Assembly: GCA_038845975.1 (NCBI GenBank)
Contig: JAWBQF010000007.1
Location: 30,351 to 94,350, forward strand
DNA length: 64,000 nucleotides
Source of the DNA: Candidatus Methanomethylicia archaeon
Lineage (GTDB): Archaea > Thermoproteota > Methanomethylicia > CALHIW01
Reading direction: 5' to 3'
Positions within the stretch are counted from its first letter, which is position 1; every line of letters begins with the position of its first letter. Below are positions 13,070 to 63,164 of this stretch, piece by piece. The notes beneath the pieces were generated by a model. That model searched no databases. It worked only from the letters and a program-made list of their open reading frames with translations, and had not been told where the DNA came from. The translations under genes were made by a program, and so were the position numbers.

Positions 13070-13269
13070 CAATGCTTAATATGTATTTCCATTCATCTAG
13101 GATGACTTCATATATTCTAACTTTGTTATTGATAGGAGTTATATTATCATGGTTTAGATCTTTAAGCTTGATTGTTATGATTATGGACTAATGAGAAAAT
13201 AAGCACCAAGAATTCATAGAAACACAATACCAAAATGGAGGTAATAAGACATGCTTAAGTTCATAAGTC
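13070..13269 (+). mobile_element. internally deleted type A IS6 remnant with right end
   Basis: AAGAATTCATAGAAACACAATACCAAAATGGAGGTAATAAGACATGCTTAAGTTCATAAGTC matches the right end of the full copies. Confidence 0.75.
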
Positions 13270-13287
13270 TTTCATATGTTAAATAGA

Positions 13288-13295
13288 TTTATATA
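13288..13295 (+). promoter_or_regulatory. TATA box of the alpha/beta hydrolase gene
   Basis: TTTATATA ending 29 nt before the start codon; 18 bp after the IS right end. Confidence 0.65.
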
Positions 13296-13324
13296 TTTCA
13301 GTTTTCTCACTAAATGGTGATACT

Positions 13325-14017
13325 TTGGGTTTATATCCAATAGTGTTTATTCATGGTGCAGGAGGTAATCATAAGGTTTGGGCTTATCAAGTTAAATATT
13401 TTAAGAATTCTATTGCTATTGATTTACCTGGTCATGATGGTGGTGAGGGTAAGCGAAGTATTGAGGAGTATGTGGAGTATGTAAGGGATTTTCTTGATAG
13501 GAATAGCTTGAGAAATGTTGTTTTGGTAGGGCATTCAATGGGTGGTGCTATAGTTCAAATGTTTGCATTGAAGTATTCAAACTATTTAAAAGCAATAGTT
13601 CTAGTATGTACTGGAGCTAGACTTAGAGTTTTACCTAAAATATTTAAGTTGATACATGAGGATTATTCTAAAGCTGTTGATTTTATTGTCAGTATGGCTG
13701 TATCGAGTAATGCAAGTCAGACTATTAGAAACCGAGTTAAAGAGGAACTGCTAAAGACTAGTCCTGAAGTGATTTATGGGGATTTTGAAGCATGTGATAA
13801 ATTCGATTTAATGAACCAAATTAGTAGTATAAGTGTGAAGACATTAATTATATGTGGCTCCGATGACCTATTAACCCCTGTAAAATATTCGAAATATCTT
13901 AATGAGAAGATATCTGGCTCTACATTAAGAGTAGTTGAAGGCTCAGGACATATGGTAATGATAGAGAAACCTGAGGAATTCAATAATATACTATATGAGT
14001 TTATCCATTCACTTTAA
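13325..14017 (+). CDS. alpha/beta fold hydrolase
   Basis: FIHGAGG, DLPGH, GHSMGG nucleophile elbow, catalytic Asp (SDDL) and His (GHM). Confidence 0.93.
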   Translation: MGLYPIVFIHGAGGNHKVWAYQVKYFKNSIAIDLPGHDGGEGKRSIEEYVEYVRDFLDRNSLRNVVLVGHSMGGAIVQMFALKYSNYLKAIVLVCTGARLRVLPKIFKLIHEDYSKAVDFIVSMAVSSNASQTIRNRVKEELLKTSPEVIYGDFEACDKFDLMNQISSISVKTLIICGSDDLLTPVKYSKYLNEKISGSTLRVVEGSGHMVMIEKPEEFNNILYEFIHSL

Positions 14018-14100
14018 ACAGAATATCTGTAAGAAACTTATATTTTACTTTTATTAGTTAACATCATAAAGCTTAACCGTAAATTCCTAAAGGTTTAGGT

Positions 14101-14727
14101 ATGAAGGGTATCGGTATCATACCTGTTAAACATTTAAACTATGCTAAGAGTAGGCTTTCTAATATTCTAGATACTAATAATAGAATTAAGCTTTGCCTAC
14201 TTATGCTTACAGATGTTCTTAATGCTCTAACATCATCCAAGCTTTCAAGTATAATTGTTATTTCACCTGATAGTAGAGTTTTAGGTCTTGCTAGGTCTTT
14301 TGGTGTTGATACTGTTAGTGTTGATTTAGGATTAAACGAATCCATAAACTACGTTAAAAACATCACTAACAATTTCGATTTAAGTATCGTTACTCCATTA
14401 GATATTCCATTAATTGAACCTATGGACATCAATAGAATTATTGATTTAAGCCTAAACTATAATGTTATTATATCCCCTTCACGTGATATGTGTGGTACAA
14501 ACATTTTATGCCGTAAGCCACCAAACAACATGGAAACATTCTTCGGTGATTTAAGCTTTAAGAAACATATTGATGAAGCAACTAGGAGAGGATTAAAAAT
14601 TAAGATTTATAGTTCTCTTAGAGTATCTATTGATATAGATTCAAGTAGAGATCTTGATTTTGCCTTAAAATATTGTCGTGAACATAATGTAAATAAACGA
14701 TTTATAAGCATGTTTAATTCTAAGTAA
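14101..14727 (+). CDS. cofC: 2-phospho-L-lactate/PEP guanylyltransferase CofC
   Basis: IIPVK...AKSRLS, MLTDVL, GLN, DIPLI, GTN, FG..SF..H, DID. Confidence 0.88.
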   Translation: MKGIGIIPVKHLNYAKSRLSNILDTNNRIKLCLLMLTDVLNALTSSKLSSIIVISPDSRVLGLARSFGVDTVSVDLGLNESINYVKNITNNFDLSIVTPLDIPLIEPMDINRIIDLSLNYNVIISPSRDMCGTNILCRKPPNNMETFFGDLSFKKHIDEATRRGLKIKIYSSLRVSIDIDSSRDLDFALKYCREHNVNKRFISMFNSK

Positions 14728-14765
14728 TATATATTAACATTAGCCAATAGAATTCATTACCGATG

Positions 14766-16121
14766 CTAAGTTGTTAGTAGAAACATAACTGTTAATATTA
14801 ATGCTACTATTATTATTGTTCTCTGTATTATTCTTATCTTAAGCCCCCTCATTGAAGCTAGCTTCTCAACTGTTAAAATTCCTAAACATGCTAATATTGT
14901 TAGTATTATATATGGAGTTACTGTTCCTATGTTTAATGCTACTATGTTTATTAGTGACTCTACGGGTTGATATGGTAGCTTAGCTATATAGTATGTTGTT
15001 ACTGGTGCTATACATGGCATTTTAACTAGGGAGAATATAAGCCCAAGAATGAAGTATAAATATAAGCTTCTAGATGAAACCACCCTATTCGCTAATCTTA
15101 GTAGGAGTTTAGGTGTTCTAAATAGTGGAAGTACTCCTCTACTAGCATCCATAGCTATACCTATTTTTTCCACTTTTATTTCTAGAATTATTTCAATCAA
15201 ATAGTAAGCTATTAATACTAGGAGTACTATTATTAGAGCTGTTGTTGCATGCTGAATGTTTTGAATTATTATTGGTGATGAAAACACTATGAAACTAAAT
15301 ATAAGATACGAGTAGAGCACTCCTAACGCTACTGCTATAAGCTTCATAAACCTTCCACTTCCGCTTATAGTTGCAATGATAAATGTCATTATGGCTATTA
15401 TACATGGATTAAATCCCTGAATAGCTCCAACTATGAAGGCTACTATTGGGCTTTCAATAGGTTGTGTTTGAGGTTTTTGGCTTAGCTCCGGTATTTCTGG
15501 AATGATTATCCTAAGATCCCTGCTTGATACGTTTCTCAACTCAAACATTTTCTCTATTGCCTTAATGATTGCTTCATCATTTAAATCCCATGAAAGCTTT
15601 AATGCTAAATCACCATATAAAGCTATAATTTCTATAGTATTCAATTTCGGTTTTGAGCTGTTTACCTCTCTATATATCTTATCAGCTATTGAGGAGTTTT
15701 TAGCTATATTTATGAATTCCTTCTCTATATCTATAATCTCTGAAATCCAGTTTTTAACTCTAGAGTTGAACTGTTGCTTATAGTCTTCCTCGCATGATGG
15801 GCAATTTGTGTTTAAAAAGACGTATACATGTACCACTGTATTGTTAAATATTGGCTTTATCCTATATGGTATACTTCCTGTTAAACTATATATTTCAGCT
15901 TCAATTCCCATTTCTAAAGTTAACAATTCAGCTTTCTCTCTTAGCTCCTTAAGCTTATTCATTAAAACGTTTAAGTCGCTTATCTGTTTCTCTAATTTCT
16001 CCCTCTCTGCCTGTAATGCTGTTATCTGTGCATTTATGTAAAAATGTGTAAGTATCAATATTAATACTAATGTAAATGTTAACATCTTAACTATGCTGTA
16101 AGCATAAAGTACTTTAGACAA
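14766..16121 (-). CDS. membrane redox protein: TM + coiled coil + CxxC thioredoxin-like domain + CcdA/DsbD-like TM domain
   Basis: CPSC motif; GFNPC and KMPC Cys motifs in TM helices; probable start 16085. Confidence 0.7.
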   Translation of the reverse strand: MSKVLYAYSIVKMLTFTLVLILILTHFYINAQITALQAEREKLEKQISDLNVLMNKLKELREKAELLTLEMGIEAEIYSLTGSIPYRIKPIFNNTVVHVYVFLNTNCPSCEEDYKQQFNSRVKNWISEIIDIEKEFINIAKNSSIADKIYREVNSSKPKLNTIEIIALYGDLALKLSWDLNDEAIIKAIEKMFELRNVSSRDLRIIIPEIPELSQKPQTQPIESPIVAFIVGAIQGFNPCIIAIMTFIIATISGSGRFMKLIAVALGVLYSYLIFSFIVFSSPIIIQNIQHATTALIIVLLVLIAYYLIEIILEIKVEKIGIAMDASRGVLPLFRTPKLLLRLANRVVSSRSLYLYFILGLIFSLVKMPCIAPVTTYYIAKLPYQPVESLINIVALNIGTVTPYIILTILACLGILTVEKLASMRGLKIRIIQRTIIIVALILTVMFLLTT

Positions 16122-16672
16122 TTAGTATACACCTCTAAATCTGATAATATGGTGTTAAGATCAAGTATTAACATTTCATTTCTATTAAGGAAAACTACAT
16201 ATTCATATTGCATGTGGGGTCTAGTCTGATATGCTTTACTGAATATTTCTTTAAGTATATTAAAGTTTGATGGAGAATATATTTGTAAGTATGCTATACT
16301 AACATTTTCTAGAAATACTCCTTTAAAATATTTTTCCAATGATGTTTTATTATGTTCTGGATATAAAACATCATTATAAAACACCAGTACAGTTACTGTA
16401 CTAACATTATTTCCAATGCTTAAAGGTTTAATACCTCTGTTAAGTAGCCATAGTTTAATATTGTATACTTCTCTCATTTTAATATGTTTTTCATTAGCTT
16501 CATTAATTTCCTCCCTTAAGTTATTAGCTTTACTAATTAGAATTGAAAGACTTGATTTAATACTGCTAAATCTCTCCACTTCATCCTCAAGCATTCTAAT
16601 ATCTTGAACTATTGCATATATCAGTATAATTGTAGCTATTAGAGTAGCGGCTAGAAACAATTTATTAATCAC
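16091..16672 (-). CDS. membrane-anchored coiled-coil protein resembling the N-terminal half of the downstream gene
   Basis: N-terminal TM, heptad region, IKP...NN...V.V.VF segment shared with its neighbour. Confidence 0.6.
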   Translation of the reverse strand: MINKLFLAATLIATIILIYAIVQDIRMLEDEVERFSSIKSSLSILISKANNLREEINEANEKHIKMREVYNIKLWLLNRGIKPLSIGNNVSTVTVLVFYNDVLYPEHNKTSLEKYFKGVFLENVSIAYLQIYSPSNFNILKEIFSKAYQTRPHMQYEYVVFLNRNEMLILDLNTILSDLEVYTNCLKYFMLTA

Positions 16673-16776
16673 AAGCTAAGTTTAACCCCTACTTTATAAA
16701 ACTAACGTTACGAAACTTAACCACATGAATTACATGAAGATTAATAATACTGTTTCCATGAAGTAAAATATTATGT

Positions 16777-17643
16777 CTAAATACTTACATATTTACTTTT
16801 TAGTAGTATAGCATCCCCCTCAATATTTGGTGATTCGCTTATAATTACTCCCTTAATATTGAAGTCTTTTAGGGCTCTTGCTAGATCATAGTAGTTATAG
16901 TCAGCCTCCTCAAGATTAACATGTTTTACTTCTCCTCTCTCACCATATATTATTCCTGAGAAATGCATATGCATATTGTTTAAAGCCTCTCTACCAAGCT
17001 TTTCTTCAATCTGTTCAAATATTGAAGCTATTTCACCATATTTATTGTATCCACCAATACTTCTAGCATGTAAATGGGCGAAATCTACACATGGAAGAAC
17101 CCCCTCAAAATTCTGGCTTAATGCTAGGACTTCTTCAAGAGAGCCGAATTCTGCAAGTCCTCCTGAGGTTTCCGGTCTTATCCAAATTTTAATTCCCTCA
17201 TCTCTTAATGTCTTTACAATCTCTTTTAGTGCATTATTAACTCTATCGTAAACTATTTTCAACTCGTCTTCACCATAATATGCTGCATGGAAGACAATAG
17301 ACCATCCTCCAGCAGTATGAGTAATCCTAGCAGTATCAAGAATTCTCCTAATACTAGCCTTAACCTTATCTTTATCTGGAGAGTTTAGATTAATATAGTA
17401 GGGAGCGTGTGCTGTTAAAACTACATTCTCCTTTACACTTACCTCTTTCACCTCTAAGGCTGTTTCTCTACTCATCTTTATACCTCTAACAAACTCCATC
17501 TCCATAGCATCTAAACCTAAAATCCTAACCTGCTTAATCCCGTTAATACTTGATGGTTTAGGAGTACTTATAGGTACTCCAGCTGTACCAAATAGTAAAC
17601 TATTAATATTCACCTTATCCACCGACAATATTAATCCGCACAA
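16777..17643 (-). CDS. nfo: endonuclease IV (AP endonuclease family 2)
   Basis: FGTAG, HAPYYINLNS, RPET.G, DFAHLHAR, HMHFSGI, ISESP; probable start ~17610. Confidence 0.92.
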   Translation of the reverse strand: MCGLILSVDKVNINSLLFGTAGVPISTPKPSSINGIKQVRILGLDAMEMEFVRGIKMSRETALEVKEVSVKENVVLTAHAPYYINLNSPDKDKVKASIRRILDTARITHTAGGWSIVFHAAYYGEDELKIVYDRVNNALKEIVKTLRDEGIKIWIRPETSGGLAEFGSLEEVLALSQNFEGVLPCVDFAHLHARSIGGYNKYGEIASIFEQIEEKLGREALNNMHMHFSGIIYGERGEVKHVNLEEADYNYYDLARALKDFNIKGVIISESPNIEGDAILLKSKYVSI

Positions 17644-18110
17644 AAATTAAAGCTTACTACTTAACAGCTTATTCTTAACATCTATAGTGAAGATATTTTG
17701 ACGTATTCCCCACTTATAAAACATGTCTAATTCACTTGTTAATCTTATATACTCTTGCCCGCTAGTACCCATAATTATAGTCCAGAGATTGGTGTGATGC
17801 TAGATCAAGCTTGAATATACATTTAACCTAGCTATAGTTAATAAATAGTAGCTTAGGTATGGATCTACGCAAGACTTCTAGTAAATTCTTCAAGCTGCTT
17901 AAATCTATGAAATATTAAGCATAATATTACTAAGAGGCTAATGTATATCTCTATAGCCTTAAAAGCCTACTAATTCTATCATTCATATACTTAAACCCAT
18001 CATTGTATCTATCAGCAAATCTAAGACTTAAATTAAACCCATCACATCCAATAAGTTTCCTATCAATAACTCTCTAATCCATAGATAAAGTAAAAGTTAA
18101 TCCATAAGTA

Positions 18111-18401
18111 TTAAATTTCTATTTGAGACTCATCATTAACATTTAGAAACACAACTCTTCCCTTAATATGTGTTGCTAGTACTGGTAGTCCACCAGCTTT
18201 TAAAGCTACATCGATTAAATTCTTTGCAATAGTATTTCTTCTCCATTTACATTGTATAAGCAGTATTTTACCATTCTTTACAGCTAGTAAATCAAAGGGA
18301 CCCTTACTCCCAGCACTTCTTGTAACAATCCATCCCTTAGCTTCAAGCTTATCTTTAATATAATGCTCAAAACGTCTACCCTTAACGTATGATCTACTCA
18401 T
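18111..18401 (-). CDS. hjc: Hjc-like Holliday junction resolvase / PD-(D/E)XK nuclease
   Basis: KGRRFE, RSAGS, FDLLA, IQCK. Confidence 0.8.
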   Translation of the reverse strand: MSRSYVKGRRFEHYIKDKLEAKGWIVTRSAGSKGPFDLLAVKNGKILLIQCKWRRNTIAKNLIDVALKAGGLPVLATHIKGRVVFLNVNDESQIEI

Positions 18402-18632
18402 ACTAATATAACTATTTAAACCTATATATTAACTCATCTATTATATAAATGTAAATTTATGAGGTAAGCTTATAGTTATCTAGTAAAGAGTAAATGTTCT
18501 AGTAGTATGTACATTATAATAGAGTAGAATACAGGATAAATCAGATATTTCATTTGAATATTGTGAATTAACTATAAATTTTAAGATTTTAGCTGATAGT
18601 AAAGTTTTTAGCTTTTGATATTTTGATATGCT

Positions 18633-19514
18633 ATGGGTTTTACTGGGATTTTAACAAGGAATCCTATGGGCTGGTGTAGTATTCAGCTTCAGGAAGCTCT
18701 TTCAAGAAGAGGTGTTAAATTTGTTTGTTTCCGTTTTCAGGATATTGTTGCTCATGTGGGGTTTAAGCCTATAGTTCTTATTAAGGGTATTGATGTCTTA
18801 AGAGATGTTGATGCTATTATTATTAGACCTATTGGCCGTGGGAGTCTTGATGAATGTATTTTTAGAATGGATGTTTTACATAGGCTTTCACGTTTTGGTG
18901 TTTATATTGTTAATCATCCTTCAGCTATTGAGAAATGTGTTGATAAATACCATGCATTAGCAATATTGGAGGAGAATAGTTTACCTGTACCTAAAACTGT
19001 TGTTACTGAAAACATAAGTGAAGCATTGAGAGCGTTTAGAGAGCTTGGCTGTGATGTGGTTATTAAGCCTGTTTTCGGGTCTAGAGGTCATGGAGTTACA
19101 AGGATAATTGACCCTGATATTGCAAGAACGGTTTTTCATTCATTAAGCTTTACACATAATGTTTTATATGTTCAGGAGTTTATACCTCACGGTACTAGGG
19201 ATATTAGAGCCTTTGTTGTTGGGGATGAAGTTATTGCTGCTATGTATAGGGAGTCATCCTCATGGAAGACAAATGTTGCTATGGGCGGTAGACCTAGACC
19301 GTTAAAGCCTGAAGGCGAATTTGCTGAGTTAGCTGTTAAAGCCGCTAAAACACTTGGATGTGAAGTTGCTGGTGTTGATATTATGGAGAGCTCTAATGGT
19401 TTTGTCGTGAATGAAGTTAATAGTCAGCCTGGATGGATGGGTCTCCAAACGGTTACACATATAAATATTGCTGATAGAATTGTTGATTATGTTTTATTAA
19501 GAGCTAGGAGGTAG
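18633..19514 (+). CDS. RimK-family ATP-grasp glutamate ligase (MptN/CofF-like)
   Basis: KP.FGSRG.G, YVQEFI, DIRAFVVG, WKTNVA.G, GVDI, EVNSQPGW; adjacent to citG. Confidence 0.88.
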   Translation: MGFTGILTRNPMGWCSIQLQEALSRRGVKFVCFRFQDIVAHVGFKPIVLIKGIDVLRDVDAIIIRPIGRGSLDECIFRMDVLHRLSRFGVYIVNHPSAIEKCVDKYHALAILEENSLPVPKTVVTENISEALRAFRELGCDVVIKPVFGSRGHGVTRIIDPDIARTVFHSLSFTHNVLYVQEFIPHGTRDIRAFVVGDEVIAAMYRESSSWKTNVAMGGRPRPLKPEGEFAELAVKAAKTLGCEVAGVDIMESSNGFVVNEVNSQPGWMGLQTVTHINIADRIVDYVLLRARR

Positions 19515-19520
19515 GATTTA

Positions 19521-20453: not shown

Positions 20454-20454
20454 G

Positions 20455-21216: not shown

Positions 21217-21313
21217 CAGCGTGATTCATAGTGACTTAAGCTAATTAGAAAGCCATTGAAGTCTATATTAAGATTTACGTAGAGTTTAAATTCTACGGTT
21301 TCTCTATTATTTA

Positions 21314-21366: not shown

Positions 21367-21372
21367 CTTAAG

Positions 21373-33236: not shown

Positions 33237-33943
33237 GATACTGTCAAGTTATTTTTAGGGAGCTTTGAGAAGCCGCTTTTGGAGGTGATCACCATTAGGT
33301 GGCTTCTCAAAGCCCTTGAGAATAGTGGTTTGTTAGGATTAATAGGTTTTCGCTCCAGGGTTAGGGCTGTTCTGCTATATGGCTGGCCTAAGCTATAGGG
33401 AAGTAACCTATGTTCTGAGAGTTATTTCATGTAGCTACGAGGCTGTAAGGCTTTGGTTAGAAGCTGGAATGCGTGACCGTTAACGTTGGGGTTAAGCCTA
33501 GGTGTATGGTAGCCGTTGATGAGGCTAAGATTAAGGCTAATGGGGAATGATGATACGTATGGGCTGCTATAGATGTTGATACGCGTAACGTATGGGTTTC
33601 ATGGCGGAGGAACATCCTACATGAAGCCTTTCTGAGGAAGGTTCTGGAAGCATGCGTGAACAAGCCCATTATCCTCGTTGATAAGGGTCCTTGGTATCCT
33701 GAGGCGCTTCAAGCCCTTGGGCTTGAATGGGTCCATAGAACCTTCGGTGAGAGGAACCGTATTGAACGATGGTTCAGAACCATGAAAGCCAGGACTAAGC
33801 ACTTCTTCAACAACTTCCCAATAAGGAAAAGCCTATCTTCAAGATAAAACTCTTCATAAGGCTCTTCGTCCTATGGTACAACTTCATAAGGCCGCATCAA
33901 ACCCTAGGAAGACCGCCAGCAATACCGATAACTTGACAGTATC
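33237..33943 (+). mobile_element. IS6-family element, type B (TIR GATACTGTCAAGTTAT), transposase pseudogene
   Basis: Perfect 16-bp TIRs; flanking direct repeat AAACTACAT; fragments VAVDE.K, WAAID, VDKGPWY, RNRIERWF; higher GC than flanks. Confidence 0.92.
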
Positions 33944-34009
33944 AAACTACATAAGCGAAAAGAATAAGTAGACTTAGCTTAATTAGTTAAGCGGTATGTG
34001 GTGTGAAAT

Positions 34010-34885
34010 GTGTTGTTTAAGGCCTTAGTAGATTTAGTGAAGCCTAAGCAAACACTACTATTACTATTTACTGCTTTAGCCTCCTATACAGTAGCTGCAG
34101 GTAGTCAGTTTATGTTTTCAATATTTACATTACTAGCAGTATCAGGTTTTCTACTAATATCTGGTGTAACAGTATTTAATATGGTGCTTGAAGTAGATAT
34201 AGACAGCATCATGGAGAGAACAAGGATAAGACCTATTCCATCTGGTATGATAAATAGAGTCTACGCTACCGTATATGGTATACTGATATATACTTTGGGT
34301 TTGGTATTAGCATACATGTTAAGTATTTGGATAGTAGTAGCTGGTGTTTTAGCATTGGTATTTGATATTATACTGTATACTCTATGGCTGAAGAGGAAGG
34401 TAGAGATAAGCATAATTGTTGGAGGAGTTGCCGGAGGTATGCCTGCTTTTGGGGGGTGGTGTACTGCAGTAGGCTATCCTACAATTGAATCTATTCTAGT
34501 AGCTGTATTAATCATGTTATGGATTCCAATGCATATATGGTTTATAGCCTATTACTATATGGAAGACTATAGGAAAGCCGGTATCCCAATGCTACCTGTA
34601 ACTAGAGGGGTTAAAGTGACCGTAAAAGCTATTACGATAAGTCTAATTCTATTCCTCTTTATTATTGCGATGATGTATGCTAGAGGAGCTCTAGGTCTTA
34701 TGACTCTTACGCTTTCAGTATTCATAACAGCACTAGCTTTAAAGAGAACAATTAACTTTCAATCCAACCCCAATAAGGAAGTTGCTAAAAGATTATTTAA
34801 GGTAGCCAGCCCATATCTAGTAGTAGTTTTCTCATCGATGATTATTGAGAAGACACTATATATTCTAATAATAAATCTAAAATAA
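34010..34885 (+). CDS. cyoE: protoheme IX farnesyltransferase (heme O synthase), copy 2
   Basis: NM..E.DID..MERT..RPIPSG, YT.WLKR, GGVAG.MP, W.P.H.W, EDY.KAG.PMLP. Confidence 0.9.
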   Translation: MLFKALVDLVKPKQTLLLLFTALASYTVAAGSQFMFSIFTLLAVSGFLLISGVTVFNMVLEVDIDSIMERTRIRPIPSGMINRVYATVYGILIYTLGLVLAYMLSIWIVVAGVLALVFDIILYTLWLKRKVEISIIVGGVAGGMPAFGGWCTAVGYPTIESILVAVLIMLWIPMHIWFIAYYYMEDYRKAGIPMLPVTRGVKVTVKAITISLILFLFIIAMMYARGALGLMTLTLSVFITALALKRTINFQSNPNKEVAKRLFKVASPYLVVVFSSMIIEKTLYILIINLK

Positions 34886-47647: not shown

Positions 47648-47754
47648 GGCTTCGTGAATTTTAGCCTATATTGAGTTTGATAGGAGAATTAATCTAAGAA
47701 TTCATAGAACAATACTGAAATAGAGGTAATAAATATGCTTAAGTCCACAAAGCC
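47648..47754 (+). mobile_element. 107-bp MITE derived from type A IS6
   Basis: Ends GGCTTCGTGAATTT and AAGTCCACAAAGCC; body matches the type A right end; 8-bp TSD GTAGTATA at 47640-47647 and 47755-47762. Confidence 0.88.
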
Positions 47755-47772
47755 GTAGTATACGTAGTAATC

Positions 47773-47780
47773 TTTTTAAG
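47773..47780 (+). promoter_or_regulatory. TATA box of the nitroreductase gene
   Basis: TTTTTAAG ending 22 nt before the ATG; 18 bp after the MITE end. Confidence 0.6.
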
Positions 47781-47802: not shown

Positions 47803-48417
47803 ATGAATGTTAGAGAAGCAATATATAGTAGAAGTAGTGCGAGATTTTTTAGGAATGTTAAGATACCTAGAAATATTGTAATTGAAATACTTAATATTGC
47901 TAGATTTGCTCCCTCAAGTAAAAATGCTCAGCCATGGAGAATTATAATTGTTGAGAATGAAGATATTAAGAAGAAAATTGCTGATGCATCCTACGGTCAG
48001 GAATGGATTGCATCAGCATCCATGATTTTGGTTTTCCTAGGTGATATGGAGGCCTATCTAAGAGAGGATTTGTTCTCTGCCTTTCAAACTCTTGTTGACT
48101 TGGGTATTGTTAGTCCTAGCAGTAATGATTTAATGAACTATATTTCTAAATGTTCTGATAGTGAGGTTAAGTTAGCTCGTTTATTAAATTGTATACTTAA
48201 TGTGGCGGTAATAATTGATCATCTAACTCTACTAGCTGTAGATTACGGTTTAGCTACATGTTGGGTTCGGAAATTCGATGCTTCTAAAATACGTAGCATG
48301 CTTAACATTCCGGATAAATATGTAATTGTTGCGCTTCTACCATTAGGCTATTCTGAAGCTAAATTTCTATCTAAAAATAGGCTTAGTGTAGATGATATTG
48401 TTATTAAATGGTTATAG
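47803..48417 (+). CDS. nitroreductase family protein
   Basis: R.S.R.F, APSSKNAQPW, GL.TCW, LP.GY. Confidence 0.92.
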   Translation: MNVREAIYSRSSARFFRNVKIPRNIVIEILNIARFAPSSKNAQPWRIIIVENEDIKKKIADASYGQEWIASASMILVFLGDMEAYLREDLFSAFQTLVDLGIVSPSSNDLMNYISKCSDSEVKLARLLNCILNVAVIIDHLTLLAVDYGLATCWVRKFDASKIRSMLNIPDKYVIVALLPLGYSEAKFLSKNRLSVDDIVIKWL

Positions 48418-51985: not shown

Positions 51986-52933
51986 TTATCTTTCAGGATC
52001 TCTAATTCCCTGCTCTGTTATTGAGAATACTGTTTCAGCTTCTGGTAGGCATGGTGAATCCGTAACTTTAGCTATTCTTAGATTTCCCTTACTCTTTCTT
52101 AAATATACTCTATGAGTTGATGCATGGCTTAATATGTGTCCTCCTGCAGGTGCTGTTGCATCACCCCAGAATACGTCTGGTCTTGCCATAACCTGATTTG
52201 TTACGTATACTGCTATATTGTATGCTCCTGCTATTCTATTAAGCTCATGCATATGTCTATTAAGTTTCTGCTGTCTCATAGCTAGGCTTTCCCTACCTGG
52301 ATATTCAGATCTAAAATGTCCTGTAACACTATCTATAACTACAAGCTTAATATCCTCTTTCTGAATAAGATCTTTAACTTGTCCGGCAAGAAGCATTTGA
52401 TGATCACTATTGTATGCTCTGGCATAAATTATATTTCTAAGCGTTTTCATAGGGTCTAAATCGAAGGATTTTGCTATCTGCATAATTCTTTCAGGTCTAA
52501 AAGTTCCTTCAGAATCTATATATAATGCCTTACCATTAATTCCACCTTTTTCTGGAGGTAGTTGAACTGTAACGCAGAGCTGATGAGCTATCTGGGTTTT
52601 TCCCGTACCATATTCCCCATAGAATTCTGTAACACTTCCAGTTTCAATTCCTCCTCCTAGCAGATTATCTAGGTTTTTTGAGCCTGTTGAAATTCTTACT
52701 ATTTGACTTCTTTTCTGTAAAAGCTCCTCTGCAGTCATAAATGTAATTTCAAGCCTTTCTCTTGCTGAAGCAATTATCTTTGCAGCTATAGATTCTGGAA
52801 TATCTGCTGATGCTGCAAGCTCTCTTACTGATGCTACAGCTATAGACTCATACGTAGTGTATCCAGCATCCTTAAGTTTTTGAGCTGTTGATGGTCCAAC
52901 ACCATCAAGCTCGGTTAAATCTACTTCAGCCAT
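51986..52933 (-). CDS. radA: DNA repair and recombination protein RadA
   Basis: HhH N-terminus, [33 protein letters not shown]. Confidence 0.97.
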
Positions 52934-52954
52934 CAATAAAGTATAGAGTTTAAA

Positions 52955-52962
52955 GATATAAA
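52955..52962 (-). promoter_or_regulatory. radA TATA box
   Basis: TTTATATC ending 21 nt before the ATG; 18 bp from the IS left end. Confidence 0.65.
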
Positions 52963-52980
52963 GCTAACGCATAAAATTTG

Positions 52981-53645
52981 GGCTTTGTTAACTTTAGATT
53001 TATTTGGTGGTTCTCTCCCTTGTTTATGGTTAAATTTGTTAAGTTTGTAGGGAGAGGGGTTCATTTACTTTAGTTGTTATGGTGCTTATATATTTCCGTT
53101 CATCTGGAATGGCTTCAGAATTTAGTTTATTGTTGTTGGGAGTTATTCTATATTATGGTTTATCTTAATCTTCCATTTGAATTCGATAGGAGGGATGCTA
53201 GGATTATGGTTGATCTATTGTAAGTAGGTTTTAAGAGAAGGTTGTTTATGTTGTGTTTAAGCCATTATTGAGGGGATTCTATATGTATGGGTTTTATGCT
53301 GCAGCATGCTTACATCCCCAACATTAAAAGGCTAAAACTATCTATGGAATATAGTTTATTAAGTGATGAAGCAATACTATAAGCATCATGAGAATATTAA
53401 AATTAAACATTATATGGTTTAGAGGCTAGAATTAATGGAGGGAATCATACAGTATGTTAAGGATAGATTATTCGATAATTATATACCATGCATGAAGGAT
53501 AGATGTGATGGTAAGCATGCATTAATGCTTAAAATCAATAATATACATACTAAACAAACATGGATAAGGAAAATAAAAGCTAAGAATTCATAGAAGATAC
53601 AATACCAAAATAGAGGTAATAAAACATGATTAAGTTAACAAAGCC
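52981..53645 (+). mobile_element. degenerate IS6-family element, type A
   Basis: Perfect 14-bp TIRs GGCTTTGTTAACTT; heavily frameshifted transposase; no TSD. Confidence 0.9.
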
Positions 53646-53663
53646 TTTGGAACAGTCGGAAAA

Positions 53664-53671
53664 TTGATAAG
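53664..53671 (+). promoter_or_regulatory. TATA-like box of the amidohydrolase gene
   Basis: CGGAAAA-TTGATAAG; 18 bp after the IS right end. Confidence 0.5.
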
Positions 53672-53699: not shown

Positions 53700-54644
53700 A
53701 TGATTATAGATTTCCACATTCATTCAGCATATAGGGAAAATATAGTAAGGGAAATGAATAGGGCTGGTGTTGATATAGGTGTAGTAGTAACCATTGATGC
53801 TGATCCTAACGATATTTATAGTAAAGAGGCTAAAGCTAAAGTTAGAAGTAGATTTAGCAATTCACAAAACATATTCTATAGTTTAGGCGGCAGATTTATA
53901 CGTGGCTTAGGTAGGCAAACACCTATAGAAGATTGGATAAGAAACTTCATGTATGAGGCAGCATTAATATATCCAGGTATTGCTATAAGCAATGAGGAGC
54001 TAGGTAGATTTGTAAGTTTAAATCCCGAACGGCTTATAGGGTTTGGATCGGTAAACCCTAATAAATCTATAAGCTATGTTGAGGAGAAACTTAAAGAAAT
54101 CAAAAATCATGGTTTAAGGGGAGTTAAGCTTATACCTACAATACAGTTTTTTAATCCATCTGAAAACAGAAATATTAGTAAAATATTTGAGTTTTGTGAG
54201 AGAAATAGGCTAATAATACTCTATCATACTGGATGTGATCCTGGACCGTTTGAAATACCTGAGCTTTCAGAAGATGCAAATCCTAAATATCTACATAAAG
54301 TTCTAGATATATATAGTAATGTTAAACTTGTACTTGCACATATTGGAAGCTACTCAGCAATTAGGCCTGGAATATGGTTTAATGAGGCTTTAAACCTCAT
54401 GAGGAAGTATGATAACGTATATGCAGACACGTCAGCTGTTACAGATATACTTTATAATGAAAAAATGATTAAGAAAATTAGAGAAACAGTAGGGTTTGAA
54501 AGAATAATATTTGGATCAGATTATCCAATAGTAGATGGGAGAAACATATTAACTGAAGTAGAGAATATTAAGAGAAGCGTTTTGAAAGAATATGAAAAGG
54601 AACAAGTACTAGGATTAAATGCACAGAGCCTACTAAAACAATAA
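53700..54644 (+). CDS. amidohydrolase_2 family TIM-barrel protein
   Basis: IIDFHIH, GVKL.P, HTG, LAH.G, YADTS, FGSDYP. Confidence 0.92.
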   Translation: MIIDFHIHSAYRENIVREMNRAGVDIGVVVTIDADPNDIYSKEAKAKVRSRFSNSQNIFYSLGGRFIRGLGRQTPIEDWIRNFMYEAALIYPGIAISNEELGRFVSLNPERLIGFGSVNPNKSISYVEEKLKEIKNHGLRGVKLIPTIQFFNPSENRNISKIFEFCERNRLIILYHTGCDPGPFEIPELSEDANPKYLHKVLDIYSNVKLVLAHIGSYSAIRPGIWFNEALNLMRKYDNVYADTSAVTDILYNEKMIKKIRETVGFERIIFGSDYPIVDGRNILTEVENIKRSVLKEYEKEQVLGLNAQSLLKQ

Positions 54645-54666: not shown

Positions 54667-54696
54667 GGTAATAAACATGCTTAAGTTCACAAAGCC
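54667..54696 (+). mobile_element. solo right end of type A IS6
   Basis: GGTAATAAACATGCTTAAGTTCACAAAGCC. Confidence 0.7.
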
Positions 54697-54932: not shown

Positions 54933-55041
54933 TTCTAACCCTATAATAATCTATAGTCTGCTCTTATAAACTTTAATAAATATAAAGTATAAAAACCAAT
55001 AATACTACCATGTTAATAAGCATACTAAAAATTCTATTAAT

Positions 55042-56564: not shown

Positions 56565-57587
<1,023 letters not shown>

Positions 57588-57714
57588 GCTTTAAAACATT
57601 AATAATTTTTATATTTAACCCACGAATCAATAGCTAATAAAAACAGCTCTTAACCACCACATTACTAACAGTTCTTCCATTAATAATGCGATGATCAAGA
57701 GCATATGTTCCATA

Positions 57715-58418
57715 TTAACCATAGGATGTAAGCTCCGTAGTCATTGTTAGCACATTATCCTCATACATTTCAGTTTTAACCACTCCCCATATTGGTACGC
57801 TACTATGTGCCCATGTTTTCACGACAACACCCCCTTCTCCAGATACTTCTACTCTAAGACAGTTTATGAAAGTACCTGCTGGAACAGTTATGGTTTCATA
57901 TCCAGTAGTATACCTCACATCAATAGGCTCCGGCTCTTCAACTCCAGAGGGCATTTCACCCGGATCAAATTCCTGTTGCATTACTAGATTATTACCTACA
58001 TATACTTGCATACGTCCATGAACAAAATTATATTCAGTTTTAGTAATCCACCAAGTTGTTATCATCTTCGTCTCCTCCTCTCTCTGAGTTATAGTCATAG
58101 ATAGTAGCCAACATAAATTACCTTTATAATTTTCCTCACTATCAACACTTAGCTTATACGTTCCCATCACCGTCAACTCATCATCCTCAATCCCCTTCAT
58201 AATATACTCAGCATAAGCTCCAACTTTAAAGTTAACTATAGGCTGTATAGGTAATGGAGTAGGGCTTGTAGGCGAACTTATAGGTGTTGTAGAGGGTGAT
58301 GTAGCTGGAGTTGTGAAGGTCTAGGTGTGAGAAGTAGAGTGGTTGCTGCAACAGCTATAACTATTACAATGACCGCAATTATAGCTATAATCTTGGAAAT
58401 GGCTTTGCTACTCATCAT
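57715..58418 (-). pseudogene. secreted/membrane-anchored protein with Ser/Thr/Pro linker, frameshifted
   Basis: Signal anchor MMSSKAISKIIAIIAVIVIV at 58418 is out of frame with the downstream domain (ETITVPAGTF..C); break at ~58320. Confidence 0.75.
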
Positions 58419-58444
58419 TCTCCCCTCTCTTTATAGTGGAGAGA

Positions 58445-58452
58445 TATATAAA
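58445..58452 (-). promoter_or_regulatory. TATA box of the secreted-protein gene
   Basis: CAAAAGA-TTTATATA; 18 bp from the IS left end. Confidence 0.65.
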
Positions 58453-58470
58453 TCTTTTGCCTTGCCAACT

Positions 58471-59145
58471 GGCTTTGTTAACTTTAGATTTATTTGGGGG
58501 TTCTCTCCCTTATTTATGGTGTTAATATGGTTAAAGTTATCAAGTTTGTTAGGGAGAGAACTCCATTTACTCTAGTTGTTTATGGTGCTTATATATATTT
58601 TCGTTCATGTTCATCTAGAATGGCTTCAGATATTCTAAGCTTATTGTTGTTGGGAGTTATTCTATATTATTGTGGTTTAGATCTTTAAGCTTCCTATTTG
58701 ATTTTGATAGGAGGGATGTTAGGATTATGGTTGATGATACTATTGTAAGTAGGTTTTAAGAGTAAGGTTGTTTATGTTGCATTCGAGCCATTATTGAGGA
58801 GAATTCTCTACATATGGGTTTGCGATGTTGCAACATGCTTACATCACTAACATTCCTTAAGAAAATTAGAGCTATTTACGGTTCAAATATAATTGTATTA
58901 AGTGATGAGACTCAATACTATAAGCATCATGTAAATATGAATTTAGAACATGAATTATACTGTTTAGAGATTAGGAATCTAATGTAGAGAATCATACAGT
59001 TAAGGATAAGCTATTCGATAACTATATACCGTGTATGAAGAATAAATGTGATAGTGGACATGGATTAATAGAGGATAAAGCTAAGAACTCATAGAAACAC
59101 AAAATCAGAATAGAGGTAATAAAACATGCTTAAGTTAACAAAGCC
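58471..59145 (+). mobile_element. degenerate IS6-family element, type A
   Basis: Perfect 14-bp TIRs; fragments RERTPF..VVYGAYIYF, IMVDDT, VLSD, RNL.E, KD; no TSD. Confidence 0.9.
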
Positions 59146-59164
59146 ATTACTATAATAGTTTAAG

Positions 59165-60529
59165 TTATTCACTAGTTTTAACTAGGAGACTAGTTAACTC
59201 GGAGATCTTATTAACTTTTTCAAGTACGTTTATAATGTTTATGATTTCTTGTGCTTGTTTCATTGTAAAAGTAATTGTAGCTAAGTTTAGAAATTTATTT
59301 TGAAGCTCCTCATTAGTTAAGGGATTTTTATAGGAACCCTTAGGATAATATTCCGTTTCCGAGTAACTTCTTCCATCTTTAAGAGTAACTTTTACTTCAG
59401 CTGGAAACATTTCAGGATAAAGTTTATCCAACTCAGAGTCTCCTTCTACCCTAATTCTCTTCATAAACTCCCTAATTTTAGGATCAAATATTTTCTCCCA
59501 AGTAAAGTTTTGAATTGTTACATGTCCCTCTACAGCTGCAAGAGCTAGGCAGAAAGGTATGCTTAACCTTGCAGCCATAAGTGTTTGAGGATTATAGTTG
59601 CAGAAGGATGAAGCAGCAAGATTATATGTTTTCAAGCTTATTTCATCGATTTCATCTACTTTTATACTTCTTGACCTTATGATTTTTATTAATGCTTGTA
59701 TTGGTGTATGACTAGCTAGAATTGATGGGAAAGCTTTGATACCGTTAAAAGATAGTTCAAATGGTTTACCTAAATTCTCCGATATTTTCTCTATTTTAGG
59801 ATTGTTTGAATATATTCTACAATATCCTTTCTTATATTCAAAAATATCTCTTGGACCTATTCCTCCTTTCTTAACAAGCCATGCAGCAAGTAATCCTTTC
59901 ATAGCTGCCATTCCTGAATGTAGGCTTTTAGTTATATCTCCAAATTCTATACACGCATAGGTTCCTGATGCTATATCAGCAGCTATTCCAAAAGCCATAT
60001 TCATTTGCTCAACATCTAGTTTAAGAAGCTTTCCACCAAGAGCTGCAGCCCCTATAGTTCCATTTAGAGCTGTTGAATGCCAAAACCTTGCGAGATTAGG
60101 CATAACGCTTTGACCAACTTTCGCTGCAGCTTCAAATCCTAAAGTAAAGGCTGTTACTATTTCTTTACCATTTGAGTTTAACTTTTCACCTAGGGCTAAA
60201 GCTGCTGGAACAAGAACGGAGCTTGTATGGGTTAGGGCTGCTGGATGGGTATCATCGAAATCTATTGAATGTATAAAGCTTCCATTAGCTAATGCTGCGT
60301 AAAGAAAGTTTGTTTTAAAACCATCAACTATAACTGTTGATTCACTACCTCTAATCTCTTTTATAAGTTCCAGAATTGGTTTCAACATTTCCTTCTCTAA
60401 GGTAAAGCCAGCTATGCCAACGCCTAGAGCATCAAGAAAGCAAATCTTCACTTTATTAACAATATCTATGGGTATATCTTCAAACTCAGTTTCAACAATA
60501 AATTTTGAGAGTATCTCAGTTACTCTCAT
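59165..60529 (-). CDS. MmgE/PrpD family protein
   Basis: AALANG...H..DFDDTH, H.S, WH.T, K.LH.G, K.FP, S.PF, PKG...NPL; start reassigned to 60529. Confidence 0.92.
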   Translation of the reverse strand: MRVTEILSKFIVETEFEDIPIDIVNKVKICFLDALGVGIAGFTLEKEMLKPILELIKEIRGSESTVIVDGFKTNFLYAALANGSFIHSIDFDDTHPAALTHTSSVLVPAALALGEKLNSNGKEIVTAFTLGFEAAAKVGQSVMPNLARFWHSTALNGTIGAAALGGKLLKLDVEQMNMAFGIAADIASGTYACIEFGDITKSLHSGMAAMKGLLAAWLVKKGGIGPRDIFEYKKGYCRIYSNNPKIEKISENLGKPFELSFNGIKAFPSILASHTPIQALIKIIRSRSIKVDEIDEISLKTYNLAASSFCNYNPQTLMAARLSIPFCLALAAVEGHVTIQNFTWEKIFDPKIREFMKRIRVEGDSELDKLYPEMFPAEVKVTLKDGRSYSETEYYPKGSYKNPLTNEELQNKFLNLATITFTMKQAQEIINIINVLEKVNKISELTSLLVKTSE

Positions 60530-60539
60530 TTCCGCCACT

Positions 60540-62492
60540 CTAGATTTTAAATGCGATTTCAAAACCATCATTAATTGCTGATAATATATTTCCAGGTTCT
60601 CTACAGTCTCCAATAGCATAAACCTCCCTAAATCTTCCTTTTAGCTTATCGATAAGATCACTATTTACTCTAAATCCTGTAGCTAATACTATGGTGTCAG
60701 CCTTTATAAATTGGCTTTTCCGTCTTCTACTTACTATCACTCCATCCTTAGTTATCTGTATAGGTATTGTTTTAGTAAGAATAGTTACTCCATGATCTTC
60801 TAGGCTTTGTATAAGAGGAAGCTTTGAGATGTTGGGCATATCGCCTCCCACATCTTCTAGCATTTCAATTACTGTTACGTTCTTCCCTGTTTCGGCTAGG
60901 TATTCAGCTACTTCTAAGCCAACTTGGCCACCACCAATAATTACAACTTTCCATCCAGTTTTAACATCTCCCTTAAGAACGTTCTCAGCTAGCACAACGT
61001 TTTCGCTATTGATTCCAGGAATATCTGGAATGTATGGTTTCCCTCCAACAGCTACAATTATAACTTCAGGATTAATCTTCTCAATGATTTCTGGTCTTGC
61101 TTCTAAACCTAGTTCTACGTTTATATTTAGTTTTCTAATTTGATCCTTCATGTAGTCTATTAGTCTTTGAATATCCGACTTTCCTGGCGGTATGGTTGCT
61201 AATAGCATTCGTCCACCAAGTTCTTTTTCTTTCTCAATAATGTAGACTTCATGTCCTCTCTTCGCCAGTACTATAGCAGCCTCCATTCCAGCTGGGCCGC
61301 CACCAATAATTAATACCTTTCTACGTTTACTAGCTAAGCTAAATACGTATTCACCTTCTCTTCCAGCTATGGGATTTACCTCACAGCAGATAGATGTTTC
61401 CTTCTCTAGAACATACTGAATACATTTACAACATGATGTACATGGTACAATATCGTTGATTCTACCCTCTGAAGCCTTCTTCGGGTAATCTGGATCAGCA
61501 ATTAGTGGTCTTCCTAACGCTATAAGATCAGCTTTACCATCTCTTAAAATTTTTTCAGCGAAATCTACATCTCTAATTTTATTAGCGATGATTATAGGTA
61601 TTGATACTGCTTTCTTAACGTTCTCAGCAAGATGTATAATACATCCCTGTGGAAAACGCATAGGTGCAACAGATGGTATAAACTCTCGAGCCTTAATCGC
61701 AGCACCAAAACCTACAGAAACACCAATAGCATCAACTCCAATCTCTTCAAGCCTCCTCGCTATTATCTGAATATCTTCAAGAGTATTTCCACCTTCAGGT
61801 TCCTCACCATTTATCCTACATACAATTGGTTTATTACCTATATTTTCTCTTATCCTTCTTATAACTTCAATAACGAATTTAAGTCTACCATTAAGGTCCC
61901 CACCATATTCATCCATTCTTTTATTCGCCCATGGAGATAGGAATTGGCCACATAGATACATATGTGCGCAATGTAGTCCAATACCATCGAATCCAGCCTC
62001 TATGGCTCTTCTTGCAGCTTCGCCAAACTTCTCTACCAACTCTTCTATTTCATCTAATGTTAGCTCTCTAGGAACAACATATCCTGGAACTGGATGAGCT
62101 ATGCTTGAGGGAGCTACTGGTATTAATCCACGTGTTACCTCCAATCTACCAGTAGTCTTAGATACTCTTCCAGCTCTTCTTCCACCATGAGATAATTGCA
62201 TGACGATTTTTACGTCATGAGCTTTTACAGCTTTAACCAATTTTTCTAGTCCAGGTATATACTTATCATTATCTACGGCTAAGGCCTCCTTTGAGTTGTT
62301 CCCAATAGGGAAATCCACTATTCCATCTCCAATTATTATTAAGCCTACACCTCCTCTTGCTCTCTCCTCAAAGAATTTAATCATTCGCTCCGTTACAAAT
62401 CCATCCTTACAAAGATTAAGTGTCATAGGAGCCATAACAAGTCTATTCTTAAGCTCCATTTTACCTATATAAATAGGCTCAAATAACTTCAT
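60540..62492 (-). CDS. NADH:flavin oxidoreductase, OYE/2,4-dienoyl-CoA reductase-like (FMN, FAD, 4Fe-4S)
   Basis: KNRLVMAPM, QL.HGGR, H.AH.YL..QFLSP..N.R.DEYGG, GR..IADP, C..C..C, GGGPAG; probable start 62492. Confidence 0.93.
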   Translation of the reverse strand: MKLFEPIYIGKMELKNRLVMAPMTLNLCKDGFVTERMIKFFEERARGGVGLIIIGDGIVDFPIGNNSKEALAVDNDKYIPGLEKLVKAVKAHDVKIVMQLSHGGRRAGRVSKTTGRLEVTRGLIPVAPSSIAHPVPGYVVPRELTLDEIEELVEKFGEAARRAIEAGFDGIGLHCAHMYLCGQFLSPWANKRMDEYGGDLNGRLKFVIEVIRRIRENIGNKPIVCRINGEEPEGGNTLEDIQIIARRLEEIGVDAIGVSVGFGAAIKAREFIPSVAPMRFPQGCIIHLAENVKKAVSIPIIIANKIRDVDFAEKILRDGKADLIALGRPLIADPDYPKKASEGRINDIVPCTSCCKCIQYVLEKETSICCEVNPIAGREGEYVFSLASKRRKVLIIGGGPAGMEAAIVLAKRGHEVYIIEKEKELGGRMLLATIPPGKSDIQRLIDYMKDQIRKLNINVELGLEARPEIIEKINPEVIIVAVGGKPYIPDIPGINSENVVLAENVLKGDVKTGWKVVIIGGGQVGLEVAEYLAETGKNVTVIEMLEDVGGDMPNISKLPLIQSLEDHGVTILTKTIPIQITKDGVIVSRRRKSQFIKADTIVLATGFRVNSDLIDKLKGRFREVYAIGDCREPGNILSAINDGFEIAFKI

Positions 62493-62548
62493 TAAGTCAC
62501 CATATACTTTTAAAGACAAGTCATTTAAGGCTTTCGGTATTTTAAAAT

Positions 62549-63164
62549 GATGTTGTTAAGTTTTCTGATTAGCAACATGTTATACCAAGCTATGTAGGTT
62601 TCCAGGAAGTTATTAGGCTTTTAATGATGGAATTGAAGGGAAATCATGTAGAAACGTTTGTCTAGATTTCCAAACCAGGCGTTCTATACGATTACTAGAC
62701 CGAGACTTGACGTCTCTACTTAAGGTCTAAGCTCATGTTTTCCGATACCATAAACCCTTTATCTATCTAGGAACTTATAGAACATGTCTCCAGCCTTTGT
62801 AGGAAGTTTACATCCAGCTCCTCGTCCAGGAACCTAGGCCAATACCCTAGTTCCCGTATCTACTGCTGCTCAATATAAAGTTACTATCCTCCAGCTTGAG
62901 TTTACCTTATCCATAGCTATAATCCTCCTACGTCTTTGTTCAGGCTTAGGAAGAGCTTTCTTTAACCTTGAACAAAAGCCACTTCGTGACCGAACCCGCC
63001 TCTAAAAGACCTTGGTGTAGGCCGGATTAATAGAGGAGAGCGGACATAACTTTAACCCTAAGGGACAGCTGGTTCTAACGAAATAAGCCTACCATATACA
63101 CAAAGCCGAAAAGGAATTAAACCACCTGAAAGAAAGAAGCATATCAACTAAACTTGACGGTACC
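62549..63164 (-). mobile_element. degenerate IS6-family element, type C (TIR GGTACCGTCAAGTT)
   Basis: Ends GGTACCGTCAAGTT and eroded GATGTTGTTAAGTT; 8-bp TSD TTTAAAAT; fragments IAMD..K, AAVD, DKG.WY, NRIER. Confidence 0.8.

Follow-up and report, generated by a model that had tools for sequence, protein, structure and literature searches.

The 64,000-nt stretch of Candidatus Methanomethylicia archaeon DNA analysed here (assembly GCA_038845975.1, contig JAWBQF010000007.1, positions 30,351 to 94,350; hereafter the window) carries several copies and remnants of a 665-730 bp IS6-like insertion sequence (IS), designated type A. Its terminal inverted repeat (TIR) is GGCTTTGTTAACTT at both ends; beyond the TIR, the L end continues TAGATTTATTTGG and the R end AAGCATGTTTTAT. 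Further IS6-like tips in the window read GATACTGTCAAGTTAT (type B) and GATACTGTTACTTTTAG (type C), and a fourth subtype is present at 62549. A first-pass annotation had claimed that these elements lie at a fixed distance upstream of TATA boxes of host genes. Flanks are numbered outward, base n being the nth base counted away from the IS tip; +19 thus denotes a TATA box that starts at base 19. Bit scores given for promoters refer to the promoter model described below.

Five type-A ends in the window had been listed with a TATA box at base 19. The register was the same on re-scoring for the tips at 47754, 52981, 53645 and 58471. The degenerate 665-bp element at 52981..53645 (+; L tip 52981, R tip 53645) has no target duplication and has promoters at both ends. 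At the L tip, the BRE (TFB recognition element) and TATA box of radA occupy 52955..52968 (-), with TATA TTTATATC at 52962-52955 (+19, 11.3 bits); radA itself lies at 51986-52936 (-) and matches Rad51 with 340 bits. At the R tip, the amidohydrolase promoter at 53658..53671 (+) consists of BRE GGAAAA and a weak TATA TTGATAAG at 53664-53671 (+19, 6.5 bits), followed by the gene at 53700-54644. The R-end remnant at 47731..47754 (+; tip 47754) faces a nitroreductase promoter at 47767..47780 (+; BRE GTAATC, TATA TTTTTAAG at 47773-47780, +19, 7.7 bits), with the gene at 47803-48417. The element at 58471..59145 (+) is 675 bp long and degenerate, lacks a target duplication, and has a promoter at its L tip only (58445..58458, -; BRE AAAAGA, TATA TTTATATA at 58452-58445, +19, 9.8 bits). 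The fifth end differed by one base. It belongs to a degraded R-end remnant at 13084..13270 (+), whose tip has four mismatches to the TIR 14-mer and aligns at 13270 rather than 13269; this places the hydrolase promoter (BRE and TATA at 13282..13295, +; TATA TTTATATA at 13288-13295, 8.2 bits) at +18. An alpha/beta hydrolase gene follows at 13325-14017.

The neighbouring genes were also as previously named, except at 58471, where a secreted protein had been reported. There, the promoter is followed by ATGATG at flank bases 53-58 and by only a 46-aa ORF (open reading frame) with a hydrophobic N-terminus (58418-58278, -). A 161-aa ORF beyond it (57715-58200) is in a different frame, so this may be a broken secreted-protein gene.

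Two ends of other subtypes were likewise said to have a BRE-like motif and a TATA-like box, and both proved to be at +20. The type-B element at 33237..33943 (+) is 707 bp long, has the TIR GATACTGTCAAGTTAT and a 9-bp duplication AAACTACAT, and stops and frameshifts interrupt its transposase frame. Its tip at 33943 faces the promoter of a UbiA-family gene (33956..33970, +; BRE-like CGAAAAG and a weak TATA, 4.3 bits; gene at 34010-34885). The tip of the other subtype at 62549..62565 (+; GATGTTGTTAAGTTTTC) faces the promoter of an FMN/pyridine-nucleotide oxidoreductase gene (62522..62536, -; BRE CGAAAG, TATA CTTAAATG at 62529-62522, 13.3 bits), whose ATG is near 62502. The previously named counter-examples were again negative: both ends of the 691-bp type-A element at 11414..12104 (-), which has no target duplication, and the solo R end at 54673..54696 (+). 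Altogether, the promoter matrix gave no match in register at the window ends 11414, 12104, 54696, 59145, 63901 and 33237. The tip at 63901 is the L end of a type-A copy (63901..64000, +) that continues past the window and abuts a degenerate type-C element (63318..63890, +; TIR GATACTGTTACTTTTAG).

The scan was extended to the whole genome (2.77 Mb, 76 contigs), the setting of all counts that follow unless another genome is named. A type-A end was called where a 14-mer had at most two mismatches to the TIR and the next 10 bases fitted the L or R type; 218 ends (104 L, 114 R) were obtained. The promoter model was a 16-column motif learned by expectation-maximization; the training set was the sequence upstream of 1,925 ORFs (100 aa or longer) that have no IS tip within 120 nt. 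The motif learned from these IS-free regions was ATAGTAAAATTTATAT, a BRE followed by a TATA box. Strict TATA words (TTTAWATA, at most one mismatch) peaked genome-wide at -28/-29 and -37 relative to start codons. As a control, random intergenic positions were scored. A promoter match required at least 6 bits; for a softer call per element, at least 3 bits at 18-20 were required, with a pseudo-register background of 6/218 ends.

A promoter match was present at +19 in 80 of the 218 ends, at +18 in 9, and at +20 in 10. No other TATA start from 10 to 54 was shared by more than three ends, and random intergenic positions gave 0.92 matches per position (maximum 1.12). This sharp peak is what the first-pass annotation had predicted for a genome-wide alignment of TIR flanks. 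A broad distribution of TIR-to-TATA distances, which it had set as the outcome speaking against targeting, was not seen: among the 128 matches between bases 18 and 54, 99 were at 18-20 and 29 at 21-54. With strict TATA words, the counts were 53/218 at +19, 6 at +18, 5 at +20, and about 1.8 on average elsewhere, with 1.0-1.4 per position (about 1.2) for 40,000 random intergenic positions scaled to 218 ends.

Purifying selection alone could be considered here, with random insertion and survival of those copies that spare genes and promoters. The genome is compact, and an insertion nearer than the BRE would break a promoter. Selection of this kind sets a lower distance limit; it cannot make a three-base spike over a random background that is flat at 0.92 per position. 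In addition, the IS6-like element of an AT-rich genome (G419, 19 ends only) showed no peak. We regard selection as the sole cause as highly improbable. Since a spike demands more than selection can provide, insertion itself is very probably directed to promoters, that is, integration is targeted.

The outward flank logo carried no information at bases 1-11, and bases 12-25 read a-G-w-A-A-a-a-T-T-T-A-w-A-t. Outside the motif, the motif-positive flanks had a mean identity of 31% (maximum 59%); hence they derive neither from one duplicated locus nor from a longer repeat. A two-component mixture in fixed register, fitted without the promoter model, assigned a positional motif to 54% of the ends (119/218). 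Half of all ends is the proportion expected if one end of each element faces a promoter. The mixture motif correlated with the genome promoter matrix at r = 0.979, and shifts of 1-4 bases reduced the correlation to 0.53 or less. The 80 promoter-facing ends comprised 38 L and 42 R ends, whose sequences diverge after base 14, in agreement with the earlier statement that both left and right ends occur.

Among the type-A elements, 64 had both ends on one contig. A perfect 8-bp duplication was present in 24 of these, nine more had a duplication with one or two mismatches, and 31 had none. All 24 elements with a perfect duplication had exactly one promoter-facing end, and none had zero or two. For the elements without a duplication, the numbers with zero, one, and two promoter-facing ends were 5, 17, and 9, the split that exchange between copies would give. 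Such exchange also accounts for the two aberrant copies of the window: the element at 52981..53645, with two promoter ends, is probably a recombinant of two copies, and the element at 11414..12104 fits a recombinant that received two non-promoter ends.

The duplication sits between the tip and the BRE, so the BRE and TATA box are host DNA, as had been claimed from the differing flanks. This bears on the possibility that longer true ends of the element carry outward promoters of their own. In bacteria, hybrid or outward promoters are indeed generated by members of the IS6 family (PMC7986276). The position of the 8-bp duplication, the lack of information at bases 1-11, and flanks that are unrelated and run into different host genes leave this explanation a negligible probability.

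Types B and C behaved similarly. A promoter match was found at +19 in 10 and at +20 in 15 of 73 B/C ends, and in no more than two at any other position. Their duplications are 8 or 9 bp long; in the few B/C pairs with intact duplications, an 8-bp duplication went with a TATA box at 19 in 2/2 cases and a 9-bp duplication with a TATA box at 20 in 2/3. These small numbers hint at a constant promoter-side cut, placed 10 bp upstream of the TATA box. The genome also contains 17-18 palindromic MITEs (miniature transposable elements with inverted repeats) of 59-60 bp, each with two IS6-type tips and several with 8-bp duplications (C1:70313-70372, C1:109757-109816, C2:39911-39970, and 15 more). A promoter match at +19 was present in 7 of 36 MITE ends.

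The flanking boxes are placed like promoters in use. In 38 of the 80 positive ends (36/81 with the word-based call), an outward ORF of 60 aa or more begins between flank bases 41 and 60, which is 22-41 nt past the TATA start, as for the genes of this genome generally. This gene-proximal share of 38/80 compares with 14% for all intergenic motif matches. Metatranscriptome contigs from one dataset, weak evidence in themselves, cover radA up to 52932 and leave the IS uncovered; coverage thus ends a few bases from the start codon, at a distance of 30 nt from where the TATA box begins. In a separate case, the type-A R end at C33:12073 has a +19 promoter followed by a tRNA-like gene from flank base 48, which suggests that promoters of non-coding genes are targeted too, with a transcription start near base 48.

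Relatives were sought in other genomes and in metagenomes. The exact type-A end had no match in the genomes of other species in the public collection. The only congener (G001, 62% complete) had a few doubtful ends, with 28 matches against 11 for a reversed control. Type-A ends in metagenomes came mostly from the same population, 128 of 158 unique flanks being letter-identical to this genome. In 15 metagenome flanks unrelated to this genome, a strict TATA word was at 19 in four and at 20 in one, and further flanks among them were TATA-like by eye.

A genome of another class (G347) carries 59 copies of a 667-bp IS6-like element, with an intact 201-aa ORF containing one PF13610 domain in the copy examined; homologues of this transposase carry the source label Candidatus Nitrosocosmicus. 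A TATA-like word (at most two mismatches) was at +19 in 18 and at +20 in 25 of 118 ends, with about four elsewhere. The rate per end at 19-21 was 0.39, compared with 0.10 in a pseudo-register, and perfect duplications flanked 45 of 58 elements. This element also has a cut-site preference for G at duplication base 1 (40/118 ends) and C at base 8 (41/118), together with A/T at bases 11-12; this preference is separate from the TATA-like enrichment at 19-22.

In a third family (G222), about 100 ends with the IS6-like TIR GATAGTGTCCAAATAA have flanks of 44% GC. A TATA-like 8-mer was at +19 in 8 of 43 unique ends (30 loci) and in no more than two elsewhere, and the flanks were enriched in A15, A16, T21, A22, and A24. 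G222 also has MITE-sized pairs of about 108 bp (e.g., C11:31714-31821, C32:144-251) and a second element with a tip, GGGTACTGTCAAGTT, similar to that of type B in the window. The register thus recurs in G347 and G222, where the signal is weaker, and no peak was seen in the 19 ends read from G419. The +19 register is common to several, not all, of the archaeal IS6-like elements sampled and is weaker outside this genome. That three distant lineages share it suggests that the property is old and conserved and not a quirk of one genome.

A register could also arise after broad insertion if only copies at a spacing of exactly 18 bp from a downstream TATA box had been retained because the IS end is useful there, as a regulatory site or divergent promoter. 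At a median pairwise identity of 86%, the type-A copies are old, and they are defective, so sorting could have gone on for long. In G347, with its intact ORF in the copy examined and its many perfect duplications, the bias is less pronounced. Furthermore, the type-A L end has a promoter-like BRE/TATA of its own, with the TATA box at inward base 19 (median 7.2 bits, 104 L ends), followed by GGTG and ATG near bases 45-59 (e.g., 52981-53040, 58471-58530). Against retention, the L and R ends face promoters equally despite their divergence, and the 60-bp MITEs and subtypes of unrelated inner sequence stand in the same register. All 24 intact-duplication events are at promoters, and the elements of G347 and G222 already show the peak. 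Differential retention is accordingly judged very unlikely.

The copies assembled in this genome are relics. Repeats amount to about 152 kb in 294 segments, of which 273 belong to one IS6-linked component, so that no unrelated IS family was available as a control. The longest frame among the 64 type-A copies is 120 aa, 15 B/C copies have frames of 47-110 aa, and a majority consensus of the 64 type-A copies has no long frame. No intact transposase was found among 563 ORFs of metagenome loci. One possibility is that the family multiplied in a non-autonomous form; another is that active copies are missing from the assembly. Thirty unpaired type-A ends reach a contig end within 400 nt, several of them at 99-126 nt. 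Many contigs (e.g., C30, C32, C58, C76) stop about 100-127 nt inside an IS copy. Contigs that break in IS copies are typical of near-identical repeats, so younger copies probably exist that collapsed in the assembly, and an intact transposase gene could be missing for that reason. In the type-B copy of the window, two tandem in-frame TGA codons (33548-33553) interrupt the transposase frame; the 30-nt stretch around them is single-copy in the genome, which makes the lesion private to this copy.

Membership of the IS6 family was assessed from both proteins and ends. The type-B frame of the window matched PF13610 (DDE_Tnp_IS240) with 27.9 bits at a cut-off of 27, and the intact G347 relative matched with 50.7 bits. 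A whole-genome scan gave only two PF13610 matches, both broken. The two longest, decayed type-A frames (115 and 120 aa) had no PF13610 match; the 115-aa frame is 37% identical to the G347 transposase over 94 aa (E = 4e-21), an alignment that spans the second D and the E region. The archaeal IS6 catalytic signature is E--F---K-R according to the available text of Harmer and Hall (PMC6807381). It reads ERWFRTMKAR in the type-B frame and ERTMQYIKDR in the G347 protein, with M replacing F. Of the 64 paired type-A elements, 51 are in the 650-749 bp length bins, and no intact ORF fills any of them. The type-A TIR has the GG start and the G at base 7 of the IS6 pattern, and the 8-bp duplication characteristic of the family is perfect in 24/64 elements. 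Types B and C start GATACTGT; many archaeal IS6 members do not begin with GG, as far as the available text of the same article states (PMC6807381). That text also treats archaeal members as distant relatives lacking experimental data and proposed for removal to a family of their own (PMC6807381). The 31 of 64 elements without duplication and their 5/17/9 split are an indirect hint of replicative or cointegrate transposition.

The cut of targeted insertions is staggered by 8 bp, sometimes 9 bp. On its promoter side it ends 10 bp before the first T of the TATA box, some 4 bp short of the BRE; relative to the transcription start, this corresponds roughly to -48 to -41. The element, in either orientation, thus stays clear of the core promoter at its upstream border, and gene and promoter are left intact. 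In the archaeal ternary complex, the C-terminal cyclin fold of transcription factor B (TFB) ends just beyond the BRE, where the cut falls. The landmark would most likely be a promoter occupied and bent by TFB and TATA-binding protein (TBP), and the transposase or transpososome would dock at the upstream, TFB edge of this complex. Recombination among the roughly 100 or more copies could later have shuffled flanks, leaving elements without duplication and with two or no promoter-facing ends. Docking of this kind would be compatible with all observations made here. We give an even chance to the full proposal, in which the elements (types A, B/C, and D and the 60-bp MITEs) would be relics of archaeal IS6-like DDE transposons directed to promoters, with the TFB/TBP-occupied promoter as the likely landmark.

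The main alternative is direct read-out, in which the transposase or transpososome reads BRE/TATA sequence or shape in naked DNA 5-18 bp beside the cut, with no host factor. The signal is indeed strictly sequence-defined and register-exact. The type-A L end bears a promoter-like motif at inward base 19 that the protein might read as its own end. Archaeal ISH6 elements are reported to prefer an AT-rich target in the available text of PMC3942029. A naked-DNA reader would nevertheless need a second surface mimicking TFB plus TBP, since the flank motif reproduces the genome promoter motif at all 16 positions, degenerate ones included. The clade transposases are small, as in G347. The motif is one-sided, the cut is symmetric, and either end can face the motif; moreover, subtypes with different TIRs share one target. 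All of these points favour TFB/TBP-bound DNA. So does the comparison of IS-flank promoters with 726 ordinary promoters, which showed no difference at bases 13-45 (p<0.001; nearest 0.0014, base 18), although both sets were picked with the same matrix, which forces some likeness that the mixture fit avoids. Differences were confined to the vicinity of the cut: 34% of the IS-flank promoters have C at base 1, compared with 14% of the ordinary ones, and 26%, compared with 12%, have G at base 10. We consider direct read-out less likely than not, yet the strongest of the alternatives.

Several results weigh against targeting through the basal complex, or against targeting as such. The sequence data look alike for TFB/TBP-bound promoters and bare BRE/TATA DNA, and at matched high motif score gene-proximity is equal for IS-associated and other sites (17/37 vs 195/424), a result that also favours direct read-out. 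Three raw-read RNA runs gave 0, 0, and 2 reads, too thin for start mapping. All assembled IS6-like copies, roughly 100 or more, are defective, and no intact transposase was found in this assembly. No clean empty site was found in 113 metagenome contigs (about 883 kb). In G347, 15 of the 45 perfect-duplication elements have no TATA-like box at 19-21, the split of 15/25/5 between zero, one, and two such ends fits independence, and the signal is small when scored with the BRE+TATA matrix of this genome. The flat G419 profile, from its 19 ends, belongs here too.

The L-end motif allows a further proposal. The spacing from IS tip to TATA box is 18 bp both inside the element and at its targets, and type-A R ends have no inward promoter-like match. 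The L-end match may simply be the transposase promoter. Somewhat short of an even chance, a clade of archaeal IS6-like transposons may integrate at TFB/TBP-bound promoters with the L-end promoter in the same 18-bp register, so that one contact could serve end recognition or regulation as well as target capture.

The first-pass annotation knew of no archaeal equivalent and cited yeast Ty3 as the nearest model. No report of archaeal or IS6-like promoter-directed integration was found in the literature searched, most subscription journals being outside its reach. Ty3 is a long terminal repeat retrotransposon with an integrase that inserts at the transcription start of RNA polymerase III genes. 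It is positioned base-pair-precisely by a TBP-containing initiation complex, with a safe-haven logic, and TFB is the homologue of the TFIIIB subunit Brf1. Unlike Ty3, the present elements insert upstream of the BRE, and contact with TFB/TBP would be their counterpart of that interaction. Tn7 uses a dedicated target-selector protein, TnsD, at attTn7, a single site per genome beside an essential gene. The elements studied here share with Tn7 a landmark read at a distance from the cut; they differ in having hundreds of sites that share promoter architecture only. The available text of PMC3942029 links Ty3 to TFIIIB/TFIIIC.

A closer precedent exists in bacteria. According to the same source, the TnGBS ICEs and the insertion sequences ISLre2 and ISKra4 target sigma-A promoters, integrating at a distance of 15-17 bp on the upstream side of the -35 box; with Ty3 as the analogue, the authors suggested that these elements contact the initiation complex (PMC3942029). 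These are also DDE elements at a fixed short distance upstream of a core promoter, and they spare gene and promoter. Their transposase is Mutator-like p-MULT (3/4), whereas the present one is PF13610/IS6-like, and their targets are bacterial sigma-A promoters instead of archaeal BRE/TATA read by TFB/TBP. TnGBS and ISLre2 place mostly the inverted repeat IRr beside the promoter, as opposed to both ends equally here; ISKra4/ISLbu1, with symmetric inverted repeats, resemble the either-end orientation seen here (PMC3942029). The present elements work like the TnGBS/ISLre2/ISKra4 elements but are not members of that family. For ISH6, an archaeal Mutator-like IS, the source suggests a preference possibly favouring promoter or intergenic DNA; its duplicated target consists of the AT-rich motif AANATNTT itself, and no fixed BRE/TATA offset is reported in the text available (PMC3942029).

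Bacterial IS6/IS26 elements (IS26, IS257, IS6100) resemble type A in size (about 0.7-0.9 kb), in short TIRs that start with GG and have G at base 7, in 8-bp duplications, and probably in a single DDE transposase. That duplications are often lost when copies interact also fits their cointegrate life style, and the passages available describe hybrid promoters made by the IS (PMC7986276). Promoter-type target specificity is not described in the available portions of the IS6 reviews PMC7986276 and PMC6807381. A Pyrococcus furiosus re-annotation that discusses the IS6 copies of that genome does not mention promoter targeting.

For bacterial Mutator-like elements and yeast retrotransposons, safe-haven integration directed to promoters is on record; here it concerns Archaea and IS6-like elements and is keyed to BRE/TATA. 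It explains how about 150 kb of IS DNA is carried with many copies beside promoters and the adjacent gene and promoter intact, and systematic consequences are to be expected for divergent transcription and for the regulatory DNA upstream. For annotators, a TATA box 19 nt from an IS tip is a promoter marker. If the TFB/TBP reading is true, these elements would be the archaeal DNA-transposon counterpart of Ty3/TFIIIB targeting, and IS6 ends would be base-pair-accurate natural promoter markers. They would also be the first case outside eukaryotes of transposon targeting via archaeal/eukaryotic-type basal transcription machinery. Because archaeal TBP, TFB, and promoter DNA rebuild the complex in vitro, reading of the basal complex by a transposase is directly testable.

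Some minor observations were made in the course of the survey. Four apparent empty sites in the metagenomes were explained by another element occupying the promoter in question, by a flank that this genome also has in duplicate (C76), or by sequence variants. The right flank of the type-A copy at C34:24626 is duplicated at C76 (minus, about 637) with a different left neighbour, and it mimicked an empty site in a metagenome contig (L096). In the window, a 15-nt unit (GAGGAATGGGAAGAA and variants) occurs three times in tandem at 11261-11320, inside the frame 11146-11376 (-).

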